From: a virus
DNA: 50,660 nucleotides
IMG/VR virus record: IMGVR_UViG_3300026472_000004
Direction: 5' to 3' (one strand)
Shown: positions 11,271 to 50,439 of the stretch, one piece after another
Numbering within the stretch: the first letter of the stretch is position 1
Layout of the letters: every line of letters begins with the position of its first letter
Notes under the pieces: generated by a model
The model's database searches: none
Told to the model about the DNA's origin: nothing
The model's input: only the letters and a program-made list of their open reading frames with translations
Made by a program: the position numbers and the translations under genes

Positions 11271-12038
11271 ATGAAGTTTGGAATATGTAAATTATGTGAT
11301 GAAGAGAAAGAATTAAAAAATTCTCATGTAATTGGAAGAGCTGTTTTTAGAAAAGCCTTAAAAGGATCTAAATATACTTTAAGATTTGATCCAAATTTCA
11401 AAAAAGTGGTTAAAGATCAAGATCAATGGGCTACATATATGCTTTGTGGTGAGTGTGAGCATAAATTAAATTCTAGATATGAAACATATGCATTGGATGC
11501 ATTAAGGAATAGAATTAAAACAGTCAAACATAAAGAAAAAAATGAGTATTTTGAGATACAAGGTATTGATCAGACAAAATTAAATTTATATTTGCTATCA
11601 ATTTTATGGAGAGGTATTGAGTCTAATCATGAAGTCTTTGAAAAACTCAATATCTTTAACATTACTCCAGTGGTCAAAAAATTATTCAAAGACTGTATTA
11701 ATGATGAGCGTATATATAGATCTGAATGTTTTAACATTAGGATATCCAAATTAGTTAATTCTATTGAAACTCTTAAAATTAAAGAAATTGATTTTATAAC
11801 TGGTTTTTCCTGCAACATAGATGAAAAAGGTCGTATAAGGTTCTTAACAATATTTGAAGGTTATAGTTTTGAATTTTTTTTCCTTACAGATATTTCTCAA
11901 ATCGTTACAGGTTTAGGTGTACTTAAGAAAAATAAGCGTATTCTTAAAATGCCATATATTGATGTTTTTTCAATTCCTGAATTTAGAAAAAGTCTTTTAA
12001 AAATGCTTGAATCACAAAAAAATGAAAAAGCTTCATAA
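11271..12038 (+). CDS. Cys4 (CxxC...CxxC) zinc-ribbon protein of unknown function, possibly HNH-like
   Basis: CKLC-x9-SHVIGR ... CGECEHKLN. Very AT-rich, with an AT-rich promoter-like region upstream. Confidence 0.6.
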   Translation: MKFGICKLCDEEKELKNSHVIGRAVFRKALKGSKYTLRFDPNFKKVVKDQDQWATYMLCGECEHKLNSRYETYALDALRNRIKTVKHKEKNEYFEIQGIDQTKLNLYLLSILWRGIESNHEVFEKLNIFNITPVVKKLFKDCINDERIYRSECFNIRISKLVNSIETLKIKEIDFITGFSCNIDEKGRIRFLTIFEGYSFEFFFLTDISQIVTGLGVLKKNKRILKMPYIDVFSIPEFRKSLLKMLESQKNEKAS

Positions 12039-30021: not shown

Positions 30022-30066
30022 CTGTTTTAATTGATATTTTATGAGCACTTTGAGGAGTGCTTTAGA

Positions 30067-31464
30067 ATGAAAAAATTATTATTGATATGCTTTTTTTTGA
30101 CGGTATCAGGTCTATCTTTTGCTGGGAAACAAATTGATCTTGCTAACTTTCAAAAAACAATAACTAAAAATCCAAAAATTAATATTAATTGCCAAATAAA
30201 TAATTTTTCCCTTATGAGTACAGATCGAGATTTTAGCTCAAAACTACAATCAACATTAAACACGTTTGGTTCAATGCGAATAAAAGATTTCGATAAGGGC
30301 GATTGCGTTCAATTATCTAATTTTCAGGATAATATATTTACTACTTATATTTGGCAGAATCAAAATAGTATATTTGATACTAAGGTTGACTTATTTATAG
30401 CTTACAACCTAAAAAGTAAGGATTTACTAGGTGTAATTATTGATCAAAATAAAAATGCTTATGTATTGGGAGACAATAAGGGTGAGCTGAAACAAGCAAT
30501 AAAATCCAATCCAATATATAAGAATAACCTATATGGCGTTAATTTAGACTCATCACTGAACTTTTCGAATTTCTCTCAGATTAATAGTGAAGATAGACTA
30601 AAAAGAATGTCAAGCACTGAATCATTTGTTTATAATGTACAAAATGCTGCAATAGATGATAAAGAATGCAATATAGATAATTTTAAATTACTAGAGACAG
30701 ATAGTAAATTTAAAGCAAAATTGTCAATGCACTTAAGCGAATTTGGAGGATTAAGGATAGATGATTTTGATATGGGAGAGTGTTTAAATTCCAAATCTGT
30801 CACAAATGGTTTATTAATTACAAAGTTTTGGCAAAAAAATAAAGATTTTTATAATAACAATTTATCCTTATATGTCGCCTATAATGTATACGAAAATTTA
30901 GCCTTATTGGTCATTGTTGATGATGATGAAAAATCATATTTATTAGGTGATAATACTCAAACTTTAAAAAATAGTTTATCTAATAATGAAAACTTAAAAG
31001 ATGACTATAAATTATCTTATGATTATTCAAAATTAAATTTTAATGATTTTAAGGAAAAAATAGATTCTCAAAAGATCATGGATAAAGAGGTTGAGAAGAT
31101 ACTCAATCCTGATTGGGTTTATAGTTGTAAAAAAGATAGATTTACCAATGATAAAAGTTGCTATCTATTTAAGAAAGATTTGTCATTGATTTACTTGAAT
31201 GGTGTGTTTGGCGTGGTAGTGGGAGGGAACCACTTTCCAAGTTCTACTGGTAGCTTGAAAATTGATAAAAATGCAACTTTAAACGCAAAAGAAGGTAAAT
31301 TCTTTTCTAATACATTAAGTATTATTAATCAATTAAAGAATGGAAAAGTTGCTTACACTAGATATAAAAAATGGCCTTATGAATACAATGTTGATAATGA
31401 AGTGGAACTCGAAGGCTTTAAGAAAAGCTTTGATGAAATGATAGCTGCTTACAAGAAACTTTAA
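30067..31464 (+). CDS. Secreted protein with a tandemly duplicated domain of about 100 aa (moron)
   Basis: Signal peptide MKKLLLICFFLTVSGLSFA/GK. Two homologous segments (CQINNFSLMSTDRDF... and CNIDNFKLLETDSKF...). AT-rich and flanked by terminators. Confidence 0.7.
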   Translation: MKKLLLICFFLTVSGLSFAGKQIDLANFQKTITKNPKININCQINNFSLMSTDRDFSSKLQSTLNTFGSMRIKDFDKGDCVQLSNFQDNIFTTYIWQNQNSIFDTKVDLFIAYNLKSKDLLGVIIDQNKNAYVLGDNKGELKQAIKSNPIYKNNLYGVNLDSSLNFSNFSQINSEDRLKRMSSTESFVYNVQNAAIDDKECNIDNFKLLETDSKFKAKLSMHLSEFGGLRIDDFDMGECLNSKSVTNGLLITKFWQKNKDFYNNNLSLYVAYNVYENLALLVIVDDDEKSYLLGDNTQTLKNSLSNNENLKDDYKLSYDYSKLNFNDFKEKIDSQKIMDKEVEKILNPDWVYSCKKDRFTNDKSCYLFKKDLSLIYLNGVFGVVVGGNHFPSSTGSLKIDKNATLNAKEGKFFSNTLSIINQLKNGKVAYTRYKKWPYEYNVDNEVELEGFKKSFDEMIAAYKKL

Positions 31465-41412: not shown

Positions 41413-42507
41413 GTGAAAAAAAATGTAGGAATTATATTTGGAGGAAAATCAACAGAACATGAAGTATCCCTTCAATCTGCAAGAAATATTGTTGATGCTA
41501 TTGATAAAGAAAAATTTGATGTGACATTGATAGGCATAGATAAAGATGGGATTTGGCATCTTAATGAGAGTACTAAATTTCTACTAAACTCCAATGATCC
41601 AAGTCTTATAGCCTTACATCCATCTGGAAGAAATGTAGCATTTATTCCAGGGAAAAAAGAACAACAAATTATTGAGTTCCAAAAAAAAGCACTATCACAG
41701 TTAGATGTAATCTTTCCTATTGTCCATGGAACTCTTGGAGAAGATGGCTCATTACAAGGGTTACTGAAAATGGTAAATTTACCATTCGTAGGCTCTCAAG
41801 TATTAAGCTCTGCTATATGTATGGATAAAGATGTCTCAAAGAGATTATTACGAGATGCAGGGTTAAACGTTACACCATATATAAGGCTAACTAAACAAAA
41901 TAGAAAGAATATAAATTTTGATACTGTATGCTCTAAATTAGGTTTACCGCTATTCGTTAAACCAGCTAATCAAGGATCATCAATTGGTGTTAGTAAAGTA
42001 AATACTATAGAAGAGTTTGAAATAGCATTAGATACAGCATTTACCTATGATAATAAAGTGTTAATTGAAACAGGTATTGATGGCAGAGAGATAGAGTGTG
42101 CTGTTATTGGTAATCACAAACCTAAAGCAAGTGTTTGTGGGGAGATTGAACTATCAGATAGTTTCTATTCTTATGATACAAAATATATTAATGAAAAAGG
42201 TGCTAAAGTAACGATACCAGCCAATATCTCAGCTGAATTGAGTGAAAAAATTAAAAATATAGCTATCAATGCATATGAAATTTTAGAATGCACAGGTCTT
42301 GCCAGAGTAGATGTTTTTTTAACAAAAGATGGCACTGTCTATATTAATGAAATAAATACATTACCCGGTTTTACAAATATAAGTATGTTTCCCAAGTTGT
42401 GGGAAGCAAGTGGATTAAGCTATTCTGACTTGATTACCTATTTAATTGAATTAGCTATAGAGTATCACCAAGAGCAGAACTTAGTACTTGAGCCAAAATT
42501 AATATAA
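41413..42507 (+). CDS. ddl: D-alanine--D-alanine ligase, DdlA-type (GTG start)
   Basis: [44 protein letters not shown] and [10 protein letters not shown] motifs; 364 aa, as for DdlA. Confidence 0.9.
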
Positions 42508-42782: not shown

Positions 42783-43670
42783 TTAGATTACGATATTCTC
42801 AGATCGAGCACTTGAGATGTATTCCAGATTAAAATCTCCATGATTGTATTGATTAAAAGTTACACCATATTTTTTTTGAAAAGATAATACAGATAAAATT
42901 GATGTTGCAATAGTTGCAAGAGGAATATTATTTGCATGAATGTCATGTATTATTGCAGGGGCATTTAATCCTAAAGCCAAAAGAGCATCACTTTTTAAGT
43001 CAATGTTTACCTCAACATCACTTTTTTTAATTATTTTAAAACGTTCAACAACTGTTTTATCTAATTCCAGAATTGCATTTTCAAACCGTTTTAACTCAGT
43101 TTTTCTAATTACATCAATTTCTTCAGTATTTAACTTTTTTAAGAATTGGTCCATTGTAGAATGCAGACCTTCAAGCTCAGAAGATCTTCTTTCTTTAAAT
43201 TCAAGCAAATCGTTTAAAGAAAAATTTCCACTAGCTGATGGAATTGGTAGTGCGTTAGTTATTTTAAGTCTTAAAGTATCTTTTTTTGTTGCATGTCCTG
43301 GAAGATAAATCGGATCACCTGACATGTGGTGAATGATCCAATCACTATCTTGATCATTTAGCTTTTGCTTAGCAATTTCTCCAAATGTCCAATGCACGTG
43401 TTGTGCTACATCTACCTTACCAATAATTGGTAAAATAGGTCGCTCTAAAATGTTTAATGACTTAAGCTCATTTTCAAAAGGTAATCCAAAATGAATTGCT
43501 TGACTGGTTGGGATCGCGATTTTATCCCAATACATAATGTAGTAAAAGATATCTTCGGGAAGATAAGATCTTTCAAGAAATAAACTATTCCCATTGATAG
43601 ACATTATTCCATTTGGGGCAACGATTCCTCTTTGTACTTTTCTTTTCTTAAATTGAATGATGTTTGACAT
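42783..43670 (-). CDS. Orphan 295-aa protein of unknown function
   Basis: Long ORF with its own near-consensus promoter; no catalytic motif recognised. Confidence 0.7.
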   Translation of the reverse strand: MSNIIQFKKRKVQRGIVAPNGIMSINGNSLFLERSYLPEDIFYYIMYWDKIAIPTSQAIHFGLPFENELKSLNILERPILPIIGKVDVAQHVHWTFGEIAKQKLNDQDSDWIIHHMSGDPIYLPGHATKKDTLRLKITNALPIPSASGNFSLNDLLEFKERRSSELEGLHSTMDQFLKKLNTEEIDVIRKTELKRFENAILELDKTVVERFKIIKKSDVEVNIDLKSDALLALGLNAPAIIHDIHANNIPLATIATSILSVLSFQKKYGVTFNQYNHGDFNLEYISSARSENIVI

Positions 43671-43746: not shown

Positions 43747-45042
43747 TCACTTAACTTTTATCATCCCATTCTTCGTAAAATAATTCTTAGACAACATATC
43801 TCGACTCATTGACCACTTACGATCTTTGAAATAACACGGACCTACTGAAATCTTAGATTTACCGAATTTACTTTGAATATCTTCATAAGCCTGCATCAAA
43901 TTTTCATTTAATGTTCTTGTTTCATGATCTGAAAGCAGGTCGGGGATATGATTTGATTTCAGAATTAACTCTGAATAAAACACACCACATTTTTTGTACT
44001 TGATACCTGGTTTATATATCTTCTCAAGTAAAAGATATGCGACTTCAACCAAATTTAAAACACAATCAGTTGGTTCAGCAAACTTATAAGTCTGTGCTTT
44101 GCTATAGTAAGGAACAGACGCATCAAATGGATTCGATTGAACAAAAGCCGTAATCACACCACACAATAACTTTTCTTTTCTCAAACGCCCAACAGCGTCT
44201 TGGACATACTTAGCCATTGCTTCTTTCAAGTCCTGCAGCTCTGTGATTTTCACGCCAAAGGATCGGCTTGCTACAATTTGCTGCTTTGGTTTTGGCTGAT
44301 CGTCAATCGGCATACATGAGATACCTTGTAGTTCTAAAACAGTTCTTTGCATGCAAACTGTAAACATTTTTCCCATAATAGGGGGATTTGCTTTGGATAA
44401 ATCCAAAACGGTTTTAATCCCCATATCATTGAGCTTTTTATTTTGCTTTCTGCCCACGCCCCAAACTTCGCCAACTTCTACTAAAGACCAAAAGTAATCT
44501 CTATGCTTCGGATTCATATTTGCTAAATCACAGACTCCATTAAACCGCTTTCCTTTCTTAGCCATGTAATTAGCAATCTTTGCTTCAGTCTTAGATCTCC
44601 CTATACCAATAGAAACAGGCAATCCAATCCATTCCTGGATGCGCTCTCTCATGCCTTGGCAATACTCGACAAGATCATAATTATGTTTAAAGCTTGTGAG
44701 ATCTAGAAAGCATTCATCAATTGAATATATTTCTTGTTCGTGTGGCGCGACATAGCCAGCGAGAATTGAATGAAACCGACGTGACATTTCAGCGTAAATT
44801 GCATAGTTACTTGAAAGTACTTGCACATGGTTTTTCTGAACTACATCTTTGATCTGAAAAAGTGGCACACCCATTTTAATGCCCATTGCTTTTGCTTCAT
44901 TGCTACGGGCTACTGCACATCCATCATTGTTTGAGAGTACGATGACAGGGACATTGTTCAGCTTGGGGTTAAAGAAACGCTCACACGAGACATAGCAATT
45001 ATTGATATCAATAAGTGCAAATATCTTTTCTTCATGTTTCAT
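43747..45042 (-). CDS. umuC: Y-family DNA polymerase V catalytic subunit UmuC
   Basis: The N-terminus (FALIDINNCYVSCERFFNP...VVLSNNDGC) is typical of UmuC. Overlaps the umuD stop. Confidence 0.9.
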   Translation of the reverse strand: MKHEEKIFALIDINNCYVSCERFFNPKLNNVPVIVLSNNDGCAVARSNEAKAMGIKMGVPLFQIKDVVQKNHVQVLSSNYAIYAEMSRRFHSILAGYVAPHEQEIYSIDECFLDLTSFKHNYDLVEYCQGMRERIQEWIGLPVSIGIGRSKTEAKIANYMAKKGKRFNGVCDLANMNPKHRDYFWSLVEVGEVWGVGRKQNKKLNDMGIKTVLDLSKANPPIMGKMFTVCMQRTVLELQGISCMPIDDQPKPKQQIVASRSFGVKITELQDLKEAMAKYVQDAVGRLRKEKLLCGVITAFVQSNPFDASVPYYSKAQTYKFAEPTDCVLNLVEVAYLLLEKIYKPGIKYKKCGVFYSELILKSNHIPDLLSDHETRTLNENLMQAYEDIQSKFGKSKISVGPCYFKDRKWSMSRDMLSKNYFTKNGMIKVK

Positions 45043-45656
45043 TTAAAGTTCTTAATAACTTTTGTGACAACACCCCAGATTACTAACTCTTGTTCGTTCC
45101 CTGGGAGGATAGGTTTGTATTCAATGTTTTCTGGTTTTAGCCAAACAGCGGGTAAATTTCTGAGATCATTTTCATTATGAAAAATATCAAACAATTCATC
45201 ATGTGACATTCTTTGTGTAATCATCATTCTTTTTACAGTGAAATCATTGTCAATGAATGCGATAACAATATCTTGATGCTGTGAGCGAATGCTTCTATCG
45301 ACAATTAAATAGTCATTTATATCAATTCCAATATCTCTCATCGAAAGAGACTCAACTTGAACAATGAATGTGGCTTCTTTATTTGAAATAAGCAAATCAT
45401 TCATATCTACGGTTTTATCTATGTAATCTTCTGCTGGGGACGGGAAACCTGCAGCAACTTTATTGAGAACAAGCGGAATAGAATATTTAGTAATTGCTTG
45501 AAAAGATGAGATATTGGATATATCAGATAGGCATTTTGATTTAGATGAATATGCTCTGATATCAATAACTTTAGAGTCTTTCAAGTGGGCTAGACTTGCT
45601 TCATTTAGCTTTAACAACTTTGCTTTTGATGAACTGTCATCTAATTTAATATCCAT
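45039..45656 (-). CDS. umuD: UmuD-like S24 peptidase with extended N-terminus (205 aa)
   Basis: AAGFPSPAEDY cleavage-site region (A69-G70), with Ser105 (SLSM) and Lys142 (TVKR) spaced 37 residues apart as in UmuD. Confidence 0.85.
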   Translation of the reverse strand: MDIKLDDSSSKAKLLKLNEASLAHLKDSKVIDIRAYSSKSKCLSDISNISSFQAITKYSIPLVLNKVAAGFPSPAEDYIDKTVDMNDLLISNKEATFIVQVESLSMRDIGIDINDYLIVDRSIRSQHQDIVIAFIDNDFTVKRMMITQRMSHDELFDIFHNENDLRNLPAVWLKPENIEYKPILPGNEQELVIWGVVTKVIKNFK

Positions 45657-45666
45657 AAAAACACCA

Positions 45667-45718
45667 CTTGATTACGTTACGTATTCAAGATTTTAGATTG
45701 TATGGTTTTAAATTTCAA
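45667..45718 (-). promoter_or_regulatory. umuD promoter (TTGAAA-N17-TAAAAT) with 23-bp palindromic operator CTTGATTACGTTACGTATTCAAG
   Basis: Palindrome at 45667-45689 (10 of 11 pairs) directly downstream of the -10 (45690-45695). Confidence 0.6.
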
Positions 45719-45748: not shown

Positions 45749-46393
45749 TTAAAAAAGGTCACTTTGTTTGGCTACTTCTGATGAGTGGTCACGCGGAAAA
45801 GTGACAAATTCATCACGCATTTCCAAAAAATATTCATGGGCATGCTTATGGTCTGCATTAAACCAGTCATTTCTGTATTCTTCTGGAATGACAATGATTG
45901 AGCGTTTTTCATCTGTAGGTGCATGAAATTGCTTCATAAAAGGGTGGTTGTCAGAATTTATTGTAAGCATTGAAAACGATCTGACTTTTGAATCTTTAAT
46001 TACTGCATCATCATAAATGGCAGCAACTGTAAACGGTTGACCATCTTCTCGCTTGATTGTGTACCAATGAGATTTACCGTCTATATATTTCGGCTCATAG
46101 AATTCTTGAACAGGGACGAGACAAAATTTGCTGTACTTCCATGCGTGTCTAAAACTTGGTTTCTCTGCAACAGTTTCTGTTCGAGCATTATAAGTATAAG
46201 AACTAAACTTAAAATCTTTAGCCCAGCTTGGCAAAAGCCCAAACTTGCCGAAATCCAAATCAAAACCTTTCATGATGATGGGTGCATGATAACCTGGATA
46301 GATGTGTGGCTTAAGATCAAGTTCTAGCTGATCAACTTCGATATCCAGAAGTGATAAGGCTTCTCTTGTTGGAATTTCATAATTTGAGCACAT
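45749..46393 (-). CDS. SOS-response-associated peptidase (SRAP/YedK-like)
   Basis: MCSNY N-terminus with catalytic Cys2, size, and linkage to umuDC. Confidence 0.8.
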   Translation of the reverse strand: MCSNYEIPTREALSLLDIEVDQLELDLKPHIYPGYHAPIIMKGFDLDFGKFGLLPSWAKDFKFSSYTYNARTETVAEKPSFRHAWKYSKFCLVPVQEFYEPKYIDGKSHWYTIKREDGQPFTVAAIYDDAVIKDSKVRSFSMLTINSDNHPFMKQFHAPTDEKRSIIVIPEEYRNDWFNADHKHAHEYFLEMRDEFVTFPRDHSSEVAKQSDLF

Positions 46394-46454
46394 TTTAGAC
46401 TCCAGAATAAGAATGAAAGAATTAATTGAAAATAATATTAATTCTTCATAATTT

Positions 46455-47789
46455 TTATTTAAATGTTACTTCACTTAATGGAATTTCAACAGTACCACAA
46501 GCTTTGAATACATGAGGTAAATGATTTACAAAGTATAATGACAAATTTTGATCATCAAAAGAAAAATCTAAGTCTGATGTGCTATTTTCTTCAACATACG
46601 TTATTAAAATTTCTTTAGCGTCATCTTCAGCATATTTATAGATTAGATATTCTAACTCCTCATTGTAATTTATATCAAAAATATCGTATAAACCAACCTG
46701 TATAATATGTGGATTTAATTTAAAATTTATAGAGTTCATATAATAGTTGGGATGGGGTGATCCAAAAAATTCATATTGTGAAAAACAAATACTTAAATAG
46801 TCTTGATCAAGTCTTTGTATTGTATATCCTGAATCTACTTCAAAAGAGTGATCTAAGCTGCTTTCAATTAAATAATCAATATCCTCCAAGGTGTAAATAC
46901 GAATATCATTAATTATTTTATAACCCAATCTTTGAATAAAAGAGTTTATATATTTTGAGTCGAAATTTGGATTTTCCAAGAAAAATGGAATATTAATATT
47001 GCTATCTATTTTTATACGTTTATCAACTTCAAGAGCTAAAGAAATATTTTGATAAGAAAGTTGATGTTGACTTATATTTTTTTTCCTAAAGATATATGCT
47101 CCACCTTCATCACCTGAAAACTTTAATGCACCATGATCAGGAGTTTGCCTTTTATCTAATGGGAAATTTAATATCGTTTTTTCACAAAATGCACTGAAAC
47201 TTAAATCTTGGAGAATATTATCTTTTAAAGTTAATTGAATTGCTTTATTGAAAGGGCTATTATCATTGGGATCTCCATCACTAACTTTTTCTAAACCACC
47301 AGATGTTAATGCTTGTCTGGATCTATTTTTAGTTAAAGCATTTATACCACCACCCCTAGTTTTATTAAATATAGCTCCAGAAAAACAACTGTCAGATATC
47401 AAAGCAATATTTTTGGCTTTAGAGTGTAAAAAAAATGATAATAGAGTGTTAATATCAAACCACGTAGTAGGATCATCGAAAATACTGTCAGAACATAACC
47501 AATATCCTGTTTTTAAGTGATCATTATATTCTCCATGACCAGCGTAAATAATTAAAAGTGTATCTAATTCTAGAGCATTATAAAATTCTTGATTTAAGCA
47601 CTTATAAATATAAGATAAAGTTGTTTGTTCAGGCTCACTTAGAAGTTGAATTTGTGATTCTTCATATTCAAAGTCATATTCCGAAGTAAGAATACTAAGA
47701 ATACTATTTACATCATTAAGACAGTTACTTAAATTTTGTTGTGGAGCTTTACTATATTTATCTATTGCTATAGCTATTATTTTATTCAT
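46455..47789 (-). CDS. Caspase-like (peptidase C14) protease fused to a DUF4163/DUF3298 (RsiV/PdaC-like) C-terminal domain
   Basis: His85 in IYAGHGE (47535-47537) and Cys135 in SDSCFSG (47385-47387). The C-terminal segment YLSICFSQYEFFGSPHPNYYMNSINFKLNP...LYDIF resembles DUF3298. Confidence 0.7.
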   Translation of the reverse strand: MNKIIAIAIDKYSKAPQQNLSNCLNDVNSILSILTSEYDFEYEESQIQLLSEPEQTTLSYIYKCLNQEFYNALELDTLLIIYAGHGEYNDHLKTGYWLCSDSIFDDPTTWFDINTLLSFFLHSKAKNIALISDSCFSGAIFNKTRGGGINALTKNRSRQALTSGGLEKVSDGDPNDNSPFNKAIQLTLKDNILQDLSFSAFCEKTILNFPLDKRQTPDHGALKFSGDEGGAYIFRKKNISQHQLSYQNISLALEVDKRIKIDSNINIPFFLENPNFDSKYINSFIQRLGYKIINDIRIYTLEDIDYLIESSLDHSFEVDSGYTIQRLDQDYLSICFSQYEFFGSPHPNYYMNSINFKLNPHIIQVGLYDIFDINYNEELEYLIYKYAEDDAKEILITYVEENSTSDLDFSFDDQNLSLYFVNHLPHVFKACGTVEIPLSEVTFK

Positions 47790-47899
47790 ATTAAATCCTA
47801 GGAAAATAAAATTATTAAGTATCGTTAAATAAAAATTTAAGTATTTATTTAAATTAATTCATTAAATTAAATCCAGCAAAAACCCAAAAAATGATAATT

Positions 47900-47908
47900 T
47901 GTTATAAT
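47900..47908 (+). promoter_or_regulatory. Perfect extended -10 (TGTTATAAT)
   Basis: Lies about 220 nt upstream of the nuclease-like gene. Confidence 0.4.
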
Positions 47909-48022
47909 ATAATTATGCTAAGATTTCAATACTTATGTATATATTCTGATTTATATCATTATTTCTATGAGCCACTACAAATGTATGATTTTAATTGGTT
48001 GCTAACTATACTAAATGTTGCA

Positions 48023-48075
48023 GCAAATGGATCTAATGGTAGCGCTAGATCTTTCGGTATAGAAATTCAATTTGC
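48023..48075 (+). other. GC-richer structured element in the AT-rich leader (closing stem plus two hairpins)
   Basis: GCAAAT/ATTTGC closing stem, GATCTA-N10-TAGATC hairpin and TTTC-N6-GAAA hairpin. Confidence 0.3.
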
Positions 48076-48127
48076 ACACATAATTAAATCCATATAATAT
48101 AAATATAATTAAAATAGAGTTGTATAA

Positions 48128-49177
48128 ATGTTTAAAGTTAAAAGAAATCCTCAAAAATTTGAACCTTTCGATTTGTTTTCTACTTTGGTAGAAGAGTTAG
48201 GTTATAACATTAATGATATTGATGTTGTAGAAAAGGTAACAGAGATATTTTCTAACAGCGTAAAAGATGCTAAGTCTAAAGATATTATGCTCCATGGAGC
48301 CAGAAATGAAGGGCTTTTTTCATACATAGTCAGAGGTATGAATTCAGTTAAATTTATTAAAAAAGAAGATGCAGGAGATGCTTATGCTTCAACAACTGAA
48401 GCCATTCAAATACCAGATTATAGAATTATATTAGAGGATGGTTCATTAATATTTGTTGAGGTAAAAAACTGGAATAAAGATTATGATAAAAATTTTAATT
48501 TAGATGTAAAATACGTTGAAAGATTAGAAAATTATTGTAGCTTAAATAAGGGTAAATTATTTATTGCAGTTTATTATAGATGCATAAATAGATGGGTTAT
48601 GCTACAAAGTAATAAGTTTATTAAAGAAAATAAAAGGTTTAAAATTTCACTTGAGAATGCATTAATAAATTCAGAGTTCTCACGTTTAGGAGATTTGAGT
48701 TTTGCATTATATTCACCTTTAGAAATCTATTTTGAGTTTGGTGAGAGTACTACAATTGATAAGATTGAAGGTAATATTTACACTTATAAAGGAAAGATTA
48801 ATAATATAATTATTAAAAGTGGTGATAAAGAAATTAAAGATAATGTTGGTAAAAATATTGTTTTTAATTTAGCTCATTACGGTGAATGGGAAGAAAATTA
48901 TGAGTATATTTTTGAAAAAGATCAACTAATAGGGCTAAAGCTTACATTTAGACCTGAAGATGGATTTTCTGATAATGAAATTGAATTGGGATTTAGGATA
49001 ATTGCACAATACAGTGTAATGTTGACATGTTTTTTTGCTCAAGAAACTATCAAAGAAAATCAAATTATTAAATTGTTATATTCTGGAAAACCAAGAAATG
49101 TAACATCATTTATTCCTCATGATTATAATAATCCAGATCTTCCAATAGCAACAATTAAAATGGTAACTTTAGATTAA
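48128..49177 (+). CDS. PD-(D/E)xK nuclease-like protein with uncharacterised C-terminal domain
   Basis: HGARNEGLF helix, then IPDYRIILEDGSLIFVEVKNW (D97, E111, K113; 48416-48466). Very AT-rich. Confidence 0.65.
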   Translation: MFKVKRNPQKFEPFDLFSTLVEELGYNINDIDVVEKVTEIFSNSVKDAKSKDIMLHGARNEGLFSYIVRGMNSVKFIKKEDAGDAYASTTEAIQIPDYRIILEDGSLIFVEVKNWNKDYDKNFNLDVKYVERLENYCSLNKGKLFIAVYYRCINRWVMLQSNKFIKENKRFKISLENALINSEFSRLGDLSFALYSPLEIYFEFGESTTIDKIEGNIYTYKGKINNIIIKSGDKEIKDNVGKNIVFNLAHYGEWEENYEYIFEKDQLIGLKLTFRPEDGFSDNEIELGFRIIAQYSVMLTCFFAQETIKENQIIKLLYSGKPRNVTSFIPHDYNNPDLPIATIKMVTLD

Positions 49178-49183
49178 GAGCAT

Positions 49184-49209
49184 ATGCCAGTCTTGCTGGC
49201 ATTTTTTTT
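49184..49209 (+). terminator. Rho-independent terminator
   Basis: ATGCCAG-TCTTG-CTGGCAT followed by T8. Confidence 0.8.
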
Positions 49210-49233
49210 CACAGATTGAACCAATCTAATTAT

Positions 49234-50439
49234 TCAAATTTTAGTCAAAGTATTAATTTTATTTAACCATTTTGTGTAAGCTTCAGTTTGTTGAGGTATA
49301 TATTCATAATAATCATATGTGCCTTGTTCACCAGGCATAACATGACCGATCATCAATTCAGCAACATCACGTGAAGTAAAAGCACTGAAATTTGTTCGCG
49401 CGGTTCTTCTAAGATCATGAAGTGTCCAATGCTTCATATGGTAATCATGATGCCTGCGTAATCTTTCCATTACATTCGCAGGTAGTGCGATTGATGCGCC
49501 ATTTCCCATAGGTGTATCAGCATTATCATTTGTCAAAAAGTATTCACTGTTATTGTGTTCCATTGCCTCTTTGATTAAATCTTCCATTTCGGGGAGAATC
49601 GGTCGGACTATTTTACGCCCTGTTTTTTTACCTACTTTATTATTTGCTACTGGTACGATCCAAACTTTACGTTTTAAATCAAAATCACTTTTCTTAGCCT
49701 TTCTTAACTCACCATTACGGCAACCAAACATCAAGCAAAGCTTAAGGAATATTTTATTTTTAGGTAGGATCTTCGACTCTTCTATGGCCATTAGAACCAT
49801 AGTTATTTCTTCATCGGTTAGAATCCGATTGACTCTATTTTTTTCTATTCCTAAATCTTCTTTTGCATAAATATCTGATAGGGCATTCACTTCAAGCAAT
49901 TCACGCTTCTTAGCCCATTTTAAAACTTGTTTGGCATTGGTGAGCACTCTTTCAGCAATTGAGGGTTTTTCTTCTGCTAATTCCTCTAAAATCGCAAGCC
50001 ATTGTTGTAGTGTAATTCGGTCAATAGGAAGATCGCCGATTTCGGGAAATACATGTAACTCGAAAGAGGTCTTAATATCTGCAGCTGAAGTTTTCTTTTT
50101 TAAGCAATAACTTTCATACCAATCTGTAAACACTTCTTTTAGCGTTGTTGCATCAATATATTTTTGCTGTTGTACACGTATTTCAATTTTTGGATTTTGA
50201 CCTTTATCAAGTAGTGCGCGCATTTCATAAGCTTTAGATCGTGCATCTTTAAGTGATAAATGAGGGTAGGACCCTAAATCTAGTCTTTCAGCTTTACCAG
50301 CAAATCTATAGCGTAACTGAAAAACAATTTTGCCCTTAGGAGATACACGGACACTCATTGAGTCTCGATCTGCAACTTCTTCAACTTTATCTCGTACCTT
50401 ACCATTATTGGCTTTAAGCCATGCCTCAGTTAAAGCCAT
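49234..50439 (-). CDS. int: Tyrosine integrase, P4-type (DUF4102 N-terminal domain)
   Basis: N-terminal arm-binding-like domain, HDLRRT and GH...Y catalytic motifs; adjacent to attR. Confidence 0.9.
   Translation of the reverse strand: MALTEAWLKANNGKVRDKVEEVADRDSMSVRVSPKGKIVFQLRYRFAGKAERLDLGSYPHLSLKDARSKAYEMRALLDKGQNPKIEIRVQQQKYIDATTLKEVFTDWYESYCLKKKTSAADIKTSFELHVFPEIGDLPIDRITLQQWLAILEELAEEKPSIAERVLTNAKQVLKWAKKRELLEVNALSDIYAKEDLGIEKNRVNRILTDEEITMVLMAIEESKILPKNKIFLKLCLMFGCRNGELRKAKKSDFDLKRKVWIVPVANNKVGKKTGRKIVRPILPEMEDLIKEAMEHNNSEYFLTNDNADTPMGNGASIALPANVMERLRRHHDYHMKHWTLHDLRRTARTNFSAFTSRDVAELMIGHVMPGEQGTYDYYEYIPQQTEAYTKWLNKINTLTKI

Follow-up and report, generated by a model that had tools for sequence, protein, structure and literature searches.

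Two adjacent AT-rich genes at a prophage end, a metacaspase-like protease and an Hjc-like nuclease, very probably belong to separate cargo modules

The window analysed here, a stretch of 50,660 nucleotides from a virus (IMG/VR virus record IMGVR_UViG_3300026472_000004), carries at a prophage end, next to a tyrosine integrase gene (int), two large open reading frames (ORFs), here called A and B. A encodes a metacaspase-like protease fused to an RsiV-like domain, and B encodes a PD-(D/E)xK protein whose core resembles the Holliday-junction resolvase Hjc. An earlier note on this DNA had put forward, as one of two possible models, a paired system whose protease would detect infection and activate or release the nuclease; comparison with related loci does not support this pairing. 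The features that carry the argument are the following.

46455..47789, minus strand: gene A, an ORF of 444 aa
47070-47789, minus strand: protease domain of A, metacaspase/paracaspase-like, clan CD (residues 1 to ~240)
46458-47057, minus strand: DUF4163/DUF3298 (PdaC/RsiV-like) domain of A (residues ~245-444)
47535..47537, minus strand: codon of the catalytic His85 of A, in the motif G84-H85-G86 (codon verified)
47385..47387, minus strand: codon of the catalytic Cys135 of A, in the motif D133-S-C135-F-S-G (codon verified)
47346..47357, minus strand: R145-G-G-G loop of A, with the invariant columns R145, G146, G147 and G148
47790-48127: A-B intergenic gap of 338 nt, across which A and B diverge
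48128..49177, plus strand: gene B, an ORF of 349 aa
Residues 1-72 of B, plus strand: N-terminal helical bundle (helical over residues 8-70)
Residues 73-188 of B, plus strand: Hjc-like PD-(D/E)xK core
Residues 189-349 of B, plus strand: beta-rich C-terminal domain with no recognisable relative
48416..48466, plus strand: active-site motif IPDYRI...VEVKN of B, with D97 at 48416-48418, E111 at 48458-48460 and K113 at 48464-48466 (codons verified)
46394..49240: cargo block comprising A, the gap and B, delimited by blastn of a close prophage end (L113) against the window

Both A and B are real genes, as judged from their many full-length homologues (more than 100 for A) and from confident AlphaFold2 models, which reach a pLDDT of 83.6 and a pTM of 0.78 for A, and a pLDDT of 90.4 and a pTM of 0.85 for B. 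The GC content is 0.272 in A, 0.213 in the gap and 0.263 in B, compared with 0.364 in the whole window, and just 0.2% of windows of the same size have a lower GC than the span from A to B.

In A, the N-terminal domain combines the caspase-hemoglobinase fold with a His-Cys dyad set in G-H-G and D-x-C motifs, which places it in clan CD/C14. Specifically, G84-H85-G86 and D133-S134-C135 are invariant in 20 homologues with identity down to 37%, and C23, D26 and D133 are likewise invariant. The Cys135 motif resembles the metacaspase motif DxCHSG and aligns to the active-site motif of AtMC4. A profile of the A family matches metacaspase-4 of Arabidopsis in the PDB at 4.6e-5 with the active-site motifs aligned, and a Foldseek search with the model of A returns the MALT1 paracaspase as the best match of the protease domain (2.6e-11), with GSU0716, Yca1, AtMC4, AtMC9 and caspase-1 among the other matches. 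Among sequence models, the best NCBIfam match is caspase_w_EACC1 (7.6e-13), with a score of 48 bits that falls well short of the cutoff of 140, and the PADLOC 'caspase' model PDLC02987 gives a weak domain-level match over residues 7-157 (1.6e-7, 28.9 bits), which the homologues of A match at 23-26 bits. PF00656 (Peptidase_C14), searched at the gathering score, does not report A at E up to 0.1. Because homologues at 44-52% identity carry precomputed PF00656 matches and A has none, the A family forms a divergent branch, and A itself is most aptly called a divergent member of the clan CD proteases.

Two further features of the protease domain bear on how it may act. C23, D26 and D133 occupy what we take to be the S1-pocket positions that select Arg or Lys in metacaspases; as these residues of the Cys-x-x-Asp and Asp-x-Cys motifs are invariant, A probably cleaves after Arg or Lys, judging from its sequence. 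Additionally, the R145-G-G-G loop lies ten residues past the catalytic Cys, and the segment 144-152 is the sole stretch of the protease domain with a pLDDT below 50, so that the loop may be regarded as a candidate autoprocessing or regulatory loop.

The C-terminal 200 residues of A match DUF4163/DUF3298 both by sequence and by fold. The Pfam PdaC model gives 2.2e-5 (25.9 bits, just under the cutoff of 29.1), the family profile matches the PDB entries 3cyg (1.1e-7) and 3s5t (0.11), and Foldseek returns 3cyg (7e-10, TM-score 0.65 when normalised to the target) and RsiV (5jen, 1.5e-6). In RsiV the domain serves as a receptor with lysozyme as its ligand, and through it proteolysis is controlled; none of the known members of DUF4163/DUF3298 (5jen, 3cyg and 3s5t), which are extracytoplasmic or anchored in the membrane, is fused to a protease. 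Unlike RsiV and PdaC, whose fold this region of A shares, A has neither a signal peptide nor a membrane segment, and it joins the fold to a caspase-like domain. In both the ORF and the AlphaFold2 model, the first strand of the protease fold begins at the protein start, and A, lacking a signal peptide, is predicted to be cytoplasmic. This fusion of ~440 aa is conserved across Acinetobacter prophages and Bacteroidota mobile elements, and we found no paper in the library searched that describes it; literature searches on a caspase with DUF4163, DUF3298 or RsiV, and on DUF4163 with phage, returned nothing relevant. A DNA search of the locus against sequenced phages gives no match, and a protein search with A against phages gives a single weak partial match.

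Within A, the catalytic domain is more conserved than the C-terminal domain (0.55 versus 0.40). In Flavobacterium and relatives (proteins P0103-P0120; loci L030-L032 and L036), members of the same caspase subfamily, with a protease domain 43-49% identical, carry another C-terminal region, in which ~240 aa with a UVR (PF02151) motif replace the RsiV-like domain. The sensor module appears to have been exchanged.

In B, the PD-(D/E)xK assignment rests on fold and motif together. P96-D97 and E111-V-K113 are invariant in 71 homologues with identity down to ~22%, and Foldseek matches the core to Archaeoglobus Hjc at 2.9e-6 with a target-normalised TM-score of ~0.7, with ST1444, RecU and phage resolvases as further structural matches. 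Weak sequence matches to 4qbo (VRR-NUC) and 2eo0 (Hjc) align the motif. Sequence models recognise little of this: Pfam Hjc (PF01870) gives E 0.06 and 13.7 bits against a cutoff of 21.1, and PADLOC, PHROG and NCBIfam give no match to B, nor does PADLOC give anything worth noting for the other 70 members of the family. The family comprises 1086 clusters at 50% identity, nearly all of 335-365 aa, and is thus very large and without a Pfam or PADLOC model. As in A, the catalytic domain is more conserved than the C-terminal domain (0.39 versus 0.32), and for the fold of the latter no convincing match was found in the PDB or BFVD. A literature search on the E. coli phage carrying a B homologue found nothing relevant.

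Several more specific identities were considered for B and set aside. B shares the core fold and the D...ExK motif with the Hjc/RecU resolvases; it is, however, about three times the size of Hjc, which has a single domain of ~120-140 aa, and it adds a conserved helical bundle at the N-terminus and a further ~160 aa as a domain at the C-terminus. A bona fide Hjc is rejected, given that only 11 of 71 family members match Pfam Hjc and that the 349-aa protein has two extra conserved domains. DUF790 (Bax1) matches 15 of 71 members weakly (best 2e-4), which we judge to reflect similarity of the nuclease core only. A type II restriction enzyme is rejected because no methyltransferase is adjacent to B or its homologues in the gene tables examined; the only N6_N4_Mtase genes in the vicinity lie in a separate integron cassette ~4.5 kb off (L101) and in an unrelated ResIII-methylase pair (L103). 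In having no partner methyltransferase, B resembles the type IV-like nucleases. SPARDA/DREN-APAZ is rejected as well, since the SPARDA chains found by Foldseek superpose with an rmsd above 20 A and a query-normalised TM-score of at most 0.30, and no B locus has an Argonaute-sized neighbour. B therefore belongs to the PD-(D/E)xK superfamily but falls outside Hjc, type II restriction-modification and SPARDA.

Much of what the earlier note had read from the letters holds. The ORF coordinates, the divergent layout, the place next to the integrase and the rank of A and B as the most AT-rich stretch of the window are as it gave them. So are the C14-type protease with an intact His/Cys dyad and the DUF3298/RsiV-like C-terminal domain in A, the restriction-endonuclease-fold core (D97, E111-x-K113) and the extra domain without assignment in B, with the catalytic residues of both proteins correctly numbered. 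Its expectation that no PADLOC system would match is likewise confirmed with PADLOC-DB v2.0.0.

Whether A and B travel together was examined in loci collected by short peptide patterns with flanks of 6-10 kb; the presence of each gene was checked by tblastn across all of them. The genes beside A and B that serve as landmarks are these.

49234..50439, minus strand: tyrosine integrase gene (int) at the prophage end, with the Pfam domains Arm-DNA-bind_3, Phage_int_M and Phage_integrase; convergent on B
49184-49202, plus strand: terminator-like hairpin between the convergent B and int
45749..46393, minus strand: SOS-response-associated peptidase (SRAP) gene (Pfam SRAP 2.2e-28)
45039-45656, minus strand: umuD-like gene of 205 aa, Peptidase_S24
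43747-45042, minus strand: umuC gene, which with umuD makes up a conserved translesion-polymerase cassette

In the longer copies of the element, alaS lies beyond int (context in L001); a tRNA scan of the window finds no tRNA gene that would mark an attachment site. The exact A protein is recorded in 28 blocks of the collection, and every context shown for it has the same order: alaS, int, B, a 68-aa ORF, A, SRAP, umuD, umuC and DUF6236. A and B are adjacent only in copies of this prophage end that are 100% identical (L001-L005), and tblastn finds both genes in no locus except the window's own element. B is missing from about 25 further A loci, and A from about 100 further B loci; within 6-8 kb of the A homologues in other Acinetobacter prophages and in Bacteroidota there is no B.

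Specifically, A stands without B in prophages of the A. baumannii complex (L006-L013, A 60% identical), where the order is SRAP, A, umuD, umuC, as it also is in L157 and L192-L195; in A. bereziniae (L107), where the order is int, A, SRAP, umuD, umuC and then Septu, with int-A-SRAP-umuDC recurring in L196; and in A. soli (L108), where it is int, A, umuD, umuC. Five IMG/VR prophages (L192-L196) repeat the A-only patterns, and there are four other arrangements in which A, at 52-61% identity, lacks B. Neither B nor SRAP nor UmuC lies within 8 kb of eleven full-length Bacteroidota homologues of A, which have no neighbouring gene conserved among them, and clustering of the neighbours of 13 A loci yields nothing common beyond A and the Acinetobacter SRAP/umuDC genes. 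In the A. baumannii loci, the 338-aa protein encoded downstream of umuC was considered as a hidden B homologue; by inspection it resembles neither B nor the B motifs, and tblastn with B is nil in these loci. Conversely, B stands without A in L014 and L020 (70-72% identical), in L015-L019 and L112 (41%) and in L185/L198 (52%), and A is absent from all of 89 further B loci from viruses or metagenomes, 48 of which span at least 6 kb. The B loci without A include 80 from metagenomes, and B likewise stands without A in Vibrio, Rhizobium, E. coli and Providencia. The two families also differ in range: full-length relatives of A are mostly from Acinetobacter and Bacteroidota, and the B family mainly from Proteobacteria and metagenomes.

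The earlier note had itself named a lack of co-occurrence outside this element among the points that would refute it, and no such co-occurrence is seen: homologues show no co-occurrence or synteny beyond identical copies of one element, which speaks against a system in which the protease senses and the nuclease responds. Its fallback, two independent single-gene systems, is favoured by the existence of loci with A only, with B only and with neither. We therefore consider it very probable that A and B are independent of each other.

These results have to be set against a published precedent. Canu (CanABC) is a caspase-nuclease anti-phage system (Tuck et al., Science 2025, PMC12799240) in which a MALT1-like caspase acts with a gated pro-nuclease of metallo-beta-lactamase fold encoded downstream, and which protects against T4 (PMC12799240). 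The pro-nuclease is activated by proteolysis, a partner, CanB, is present, and the C-terminal region of CanA has an Ig-like fold (PMC12799240). Canu is thus the published form of the idea that a protease activates a nuclease, and the locus resembles it in having a caspase-family protease similar to MALT1 and a nearby nuclease in a mobile or defence context. However, B is a PD-(D/E)xK protein (best matches Hjc, ST1444 and RecU) and does not have the metallo-beta-lactamase fold, A and B are divergent instead of the nuclease lying downstream of the caspase, the two do not co-occur across genomes, and A has DUF4163/DUF3298 (3cyg, RsiV) at its C-terminus where CanA has an Ig-like fold. The statement of the earlier note that it knew of no described system with this domain combination has been overtaken as a concept by Canu; the A/B pair does not match Canu.

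A single Canu-like two-gene immune system, in which A senses infection and proteolytically activates or releases B, would account for the adjacency and divergence of two genes that share the lowest GC in the window and whose active sites are both intact; it could also draw on the proteolytic activation of the Canu pro-nuclease (PMC12799240) and on the fact that the protease domain of A, like CanA, is most like MALT1. We nevertheless regard it as highly improbable. The two genes occur together in identical element copies only, as against ~25 A loci without B and ~100 B loci without A; related prophages include every combination of presence and absence; the families differ greatly in size and host range; and B, which lacks the nuclease fold of Canu, is transcribed away from A.

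The bacterial immune proteases of clan CD offer a parallel for A on its own. The type IV Thoeris caspase-like effector, TPR-CHAT (Craspase) and the EACC1-associated caspases depend for their activation on a partner, which may be a TIR signal, a CRISPR effector or an NTPase. With these proteases A has in common the fold, the intact His/Cys dyad and the arrangement of an effector with a separate sensing module, and differs from them in having no conserved partner gene and in carrying its own putative receptor domain.

The borders of the cargo are seen in a close prophage end (L113), whose integrase is 88.6% identical (as DNA, up to 49241) and in which 94 nt separate int from SRAP. Window positions 46394-49240 stand where L113 has these 94 nt, and homology by blastn resumes at 46393, the start of the SRAP gene, which forms the border of the slot and lies outside both cargo modules; the umuDC cassette adjoins it. 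In a second lineage, 28 nt of L156, located between SRAP and the umuD operator, give way in L157 to a 1.56-kb insert in which A is the sole gene of the two. With L113, L020, L107/L196 and the window, all four states of the slot exist: neither gene, B only, A only and both. A has thus been inserted as a single gene at two different positions. Among 66 prophage ends with a related integrase, 31 have the order int, a gap of ~0.1-3.4 kb, and (SRAP-)umuD-umuC; among these 31, A occurs once, B once and both never, and 29 have neither. In these gaps we find genes of at least 15 unrelated families, among them SocA_Panacea, HNH_5, HicAB-like genes, HTH with Peptidase_M78, IS elements and several without a known family. 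In L196, SRAP, UmuD and UmuC are 87-95% identical to those of the window, A is only 52% identical and the integrase is unrelated, a mixture that indicates allele replacement at the slot. Taken together, these findings identify the interval from int to SRAP-umuDC as a variable cargo hotspot of Acinetobacter prophages, which in other elements carries toxin-antitoxin-like and defence genes, with Septu close by.

A second cargo position lies beyond umuC. In the window it holds a DUF6236/phrog_23128 gene (42783-43670, 295 aa, 31% GC), at the place where the A. bereziniae prophage has a complete Septu system on the other side of umuC (L107, 11095-13018; PtuA 8.5e-173, PtuB 6e-71).

The gap between A and B, which the earlier note had taken for a control region, is itself divided between the two modules. 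Two features were called within it.

48071..48098, plus strand: promoter-like site for B (TTTGCA, 16 nt, TATAAT), 30 nt upstream of the ATG
47891..48097, plus strand: 68-aa ORF, called by automatic gene callers

Positions 47790-48070 travel with A, and the 57 nt from 48071 to 48127 travel with B: homology of the B-only locus L020 to the window starts at 48071 and runs rightward, and that of the A-only loci L107/L196 runs leftward from 47789, the start codon of A. The promoter-like site for B agrees with the consensus at 10 of 12 positions, which is a consensus match only, and the -35 hexamer of this best site, at 48071, coincides with the left edge of the block common to L020. Across the region, promoter-like sites are at chance (29 found, 30.3 expected from shuffled sequence), an Rfam scan of the gap gives no match, and its inverted repeats are just AT-rich low-complexity pairs, so that the description as a control region is not sustained. 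The 68-aa ORF has no Pfam match and is found in identical copies of the element only, with a 60-aa variant in L004. As it has no family match and is absent from A-only and B-only loci, it is probably spurious and not a gene. In the B-only loci L014 and L020, just ~47 nt lie between SRAP and B.

Elsewhere, both families are found on a range of mobile elements. In Pseudopedobacter the neighbour of A is a tyrosine integrase, and in a conjugative element A adjoins both a serine recombinase and RadC. In the latter, a Bacteroidota element (L180, 7405-9816), RadC lies upstream of the A homologue, and a 158-aa ORF begins 2 nt past the stop of A; Pfam and PADLOC give no match for this ORF, and other A loci do not share it. 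The B family occurs in a chromosomal integron cassette array of Vibrio harveyi (L101-L103), in Rhizobium TniABQ (Tn7-like) cargo near SduA_C, and next to the bio genes of E. coli, where it occupies the end of a lambdoid prophage and has an FRG-domain protein as its neighbour (L184); the E. coli homologue is present in 28 of 5426 complete genomes. It is also carried on 43 plasmids, 34 of them conjugative, whose hosts include clinical Providencia and Proteus. On a Providencia MOBH plasmid (L183), B lies among DUF4365, 'restriction endonuclease' and UvrD-like genes. The B-family genes of the Vibrio, E. coli and Providencia loci are all annotated as hypothetical proteins.

Such carriage is compatible with roles other than defence, in which A, B or both would serve the mobile element as an anti-defence factor or an addiction-type toxin, or B as a junction resolvase of the phage life cycle. 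The similarity of the B core to Hjc/RecU resolvases, phage-encoded ones included, the position of A beside RadC near the recombinase end of one conjugative element, and the presence of both genes as mobile-element cargo without a known defence model favour these roles. However, B lies in the integrase-proximal cargo slot and not in a replication or recombination module, and it occurs in 1 of 66 related prophage ends, so that it cannot be essential to the phage life cycle. In addition, B is carried as integron cassette and transposon cargo and has two extra conserved domains absent from resolvases, and no conserved antitoxin-like gene is adjacent to A or B in the loci examined. We thus give roles of this kind a minor share of the probability.

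The constant presence of the umuDC cassette calls for separate consideration. UmuDAb recognises the operator TTGA-N4-GTNAC-N4-TCAA (PMC11332147), and the window contains one such site.

45668..45688, 21 bp: perfect UmuDAb operator TTGATTACGTTACGTATTCAA, directly upstream of umuD, between the SRAP stop and the umuD start

TTGATTACGTTACGTATTCAA is the sole zero-mismatch match to the operator in the window, and a perfect box is found in the same place in 7 other loci, upstream of umuD or umuC and in each case downstream of A and SRAP, even in the loci that have A placed between SRAP and umuD. With up to 2 mismatches allowed, no operator is present in 46394-48127 and none upstream of A. As the operator is always downstream of A and SRAP, the regulated unit is umuDC alone, and the prophage umuDC appears, from its operator sequence, to be wired into the LexA-independent DNA-damage regulon of the host. 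On operator position, A is rejected as a member of the UmuDAb/DdrR damage regulon. The umuD-like gene itself, of 205 aa in the window, ranges from 164 to 208 aa in related loci.

It could still be argued that A, and perhaps B, works with the SRAP-UmuD-UmuC cassette and not in immunity, for example if A processed or regulated UmuD, SRAP or polymerase V, or acted on damaged DNA in a damage-induced operon. In every Acinetobacter locus found, A reads in the same direction as SRAP or umuD and has one of the two as its immediate neighbour, through at least 4 arrangements and at least 3 different integrases, and all Acinetobacter B copies also adjoin the cassette. Two distant metagenomic B homologues (30-34% identical; L212, 364-4712, and L227, 1163-3074) likewise lie near a UmuC-like or SRAP-like gene, so that proximity of B and umuDC may extend beyond Acinetobacter or may only reflect shared prophage-end cargo. 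On the other hand, the position of the UmuDAb operator excludes A in 8 loci, 29 of the 31 umuDC-bearing ends have neither A nor B, full-length A of Bacteroidota has no UmuC or SRAP within 8 kb, the plasmid, integron and transposon homologues of B are unlinked to umuDC, and the slot also carries many unrelated genes. A function within the damage cassette is therefore decidedly unlikely.

On balance, we propose that A and B are two independent single-gene cargo modules, probably anti-phage, which lie side by side by accident of insertion. Independent gain and loss, the lack of a conserved partner, carriage on mobile elements and the varied content of the slot establish that they are separable modules. 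That each is a stand-alone effector-plus-sensor protein directed against incoming phage is suggested by the low GC of A and B, typical of recently acquired DNA, by C-terminal domains that are more variable than the catalytic domains and by the joining of the A protease subfamily to another C-terminal region in Flavobacteria. Whether A in particular is a stand-alone anti-phage or superinfection-exclusion protein we hold to be an even question, and the chances that B is one are equally balanced.

Were A such a protein, it would be a cytoplasmic metacaspase-like protease with the RsiV-like domain as its receptor or regulator. This domain would hold the protease inactive until a trigger is bound, and the triggered protease would then cleave host or phage proteins and so abort the infection. 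B, in turn, would be a stand-alone DNA endonuclease whose variable C-terminal domain sets what is cut or when. As no methyltransferase lies near B, the host genome would have to be spared by other means: B might be specific for phage-type DNA, either modified or branched, the latter because its core is most like junction resolvases, or it might be active only on infection.

Several observations weigh against two independent anti-phage modules. The defence role is drawn from context and architecture alone, and known defence models give only the weak domain-level PADLOC match for A and none for B across 71 members. The peptide-pattern searches with their limited flanks would overlook a partner that lies far off or elsewhere in the genome. 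In Acinetobacter, all copies of A or B seen here adjoin umuDC, a linkage that could go beyond a shared hotspot. One B homologue lies among ordinary chromosomal genes (L106); the neighbourhoods of A in Bacteroidota are mixed, with many housekeeping genes, and the strong defence matches near them are few (TIR-NLR, PDC-S02, PD-Lambda-3_B and Avs2).

A bolder version of the single-gene interpretation, which we find rather doubtful, is that A is an undescribed single-chain immune sensor, with a cytoplasmic RsiV-like receptor that directly recognises a phage protein, and that B founds a large unannotated family of stand-alone mobile-element nucleases with a new specificity domain. An endolysin or lysozyme-like protein would be one candidate ligand for A, and its binding would switch on the fused protease, perhaps through the R145-GGG loop, leading to abortive infection.

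Apart from the slot, other parts of the prophage hold unusual genes. Between its lysis genes and the DUF6236/umuDC end, the prophage encodes a full-length D-Ala-D-Ala ligase homologue (41413-42507; Dala_Dala_lig_C 9e-79), which is unusual as prophage cargo. Two very AT-rich ORFs, 30031-31464 (477 aa, 27.4% GC) and 11271-12038 (255 aa, 26.2% GC), have no Pfam or PADLOC match and may be further recently acquired cargo.

As a two-gene system, then, A and B are not a real feature, and since the protease-plus-nuclease claim fails, misdirected cloning effort on the pair is spared. Taken singly, each is an uncharacterised variant of something known, A of the caspase-like protease effectors and B of the stand-alone PD-(D/E)xK nucleases. 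The leads that remain are the fusion of protease and receptor in A and the ~350-aa family of B on prophages, conjugative plasmids, integrons and transposons. If shown to protect as a single gene, either A or B would represent a new stand-alone defence family, and the hotspot between the integrase and the UmuDAb-controlled umuDC could be mined for further candidates.

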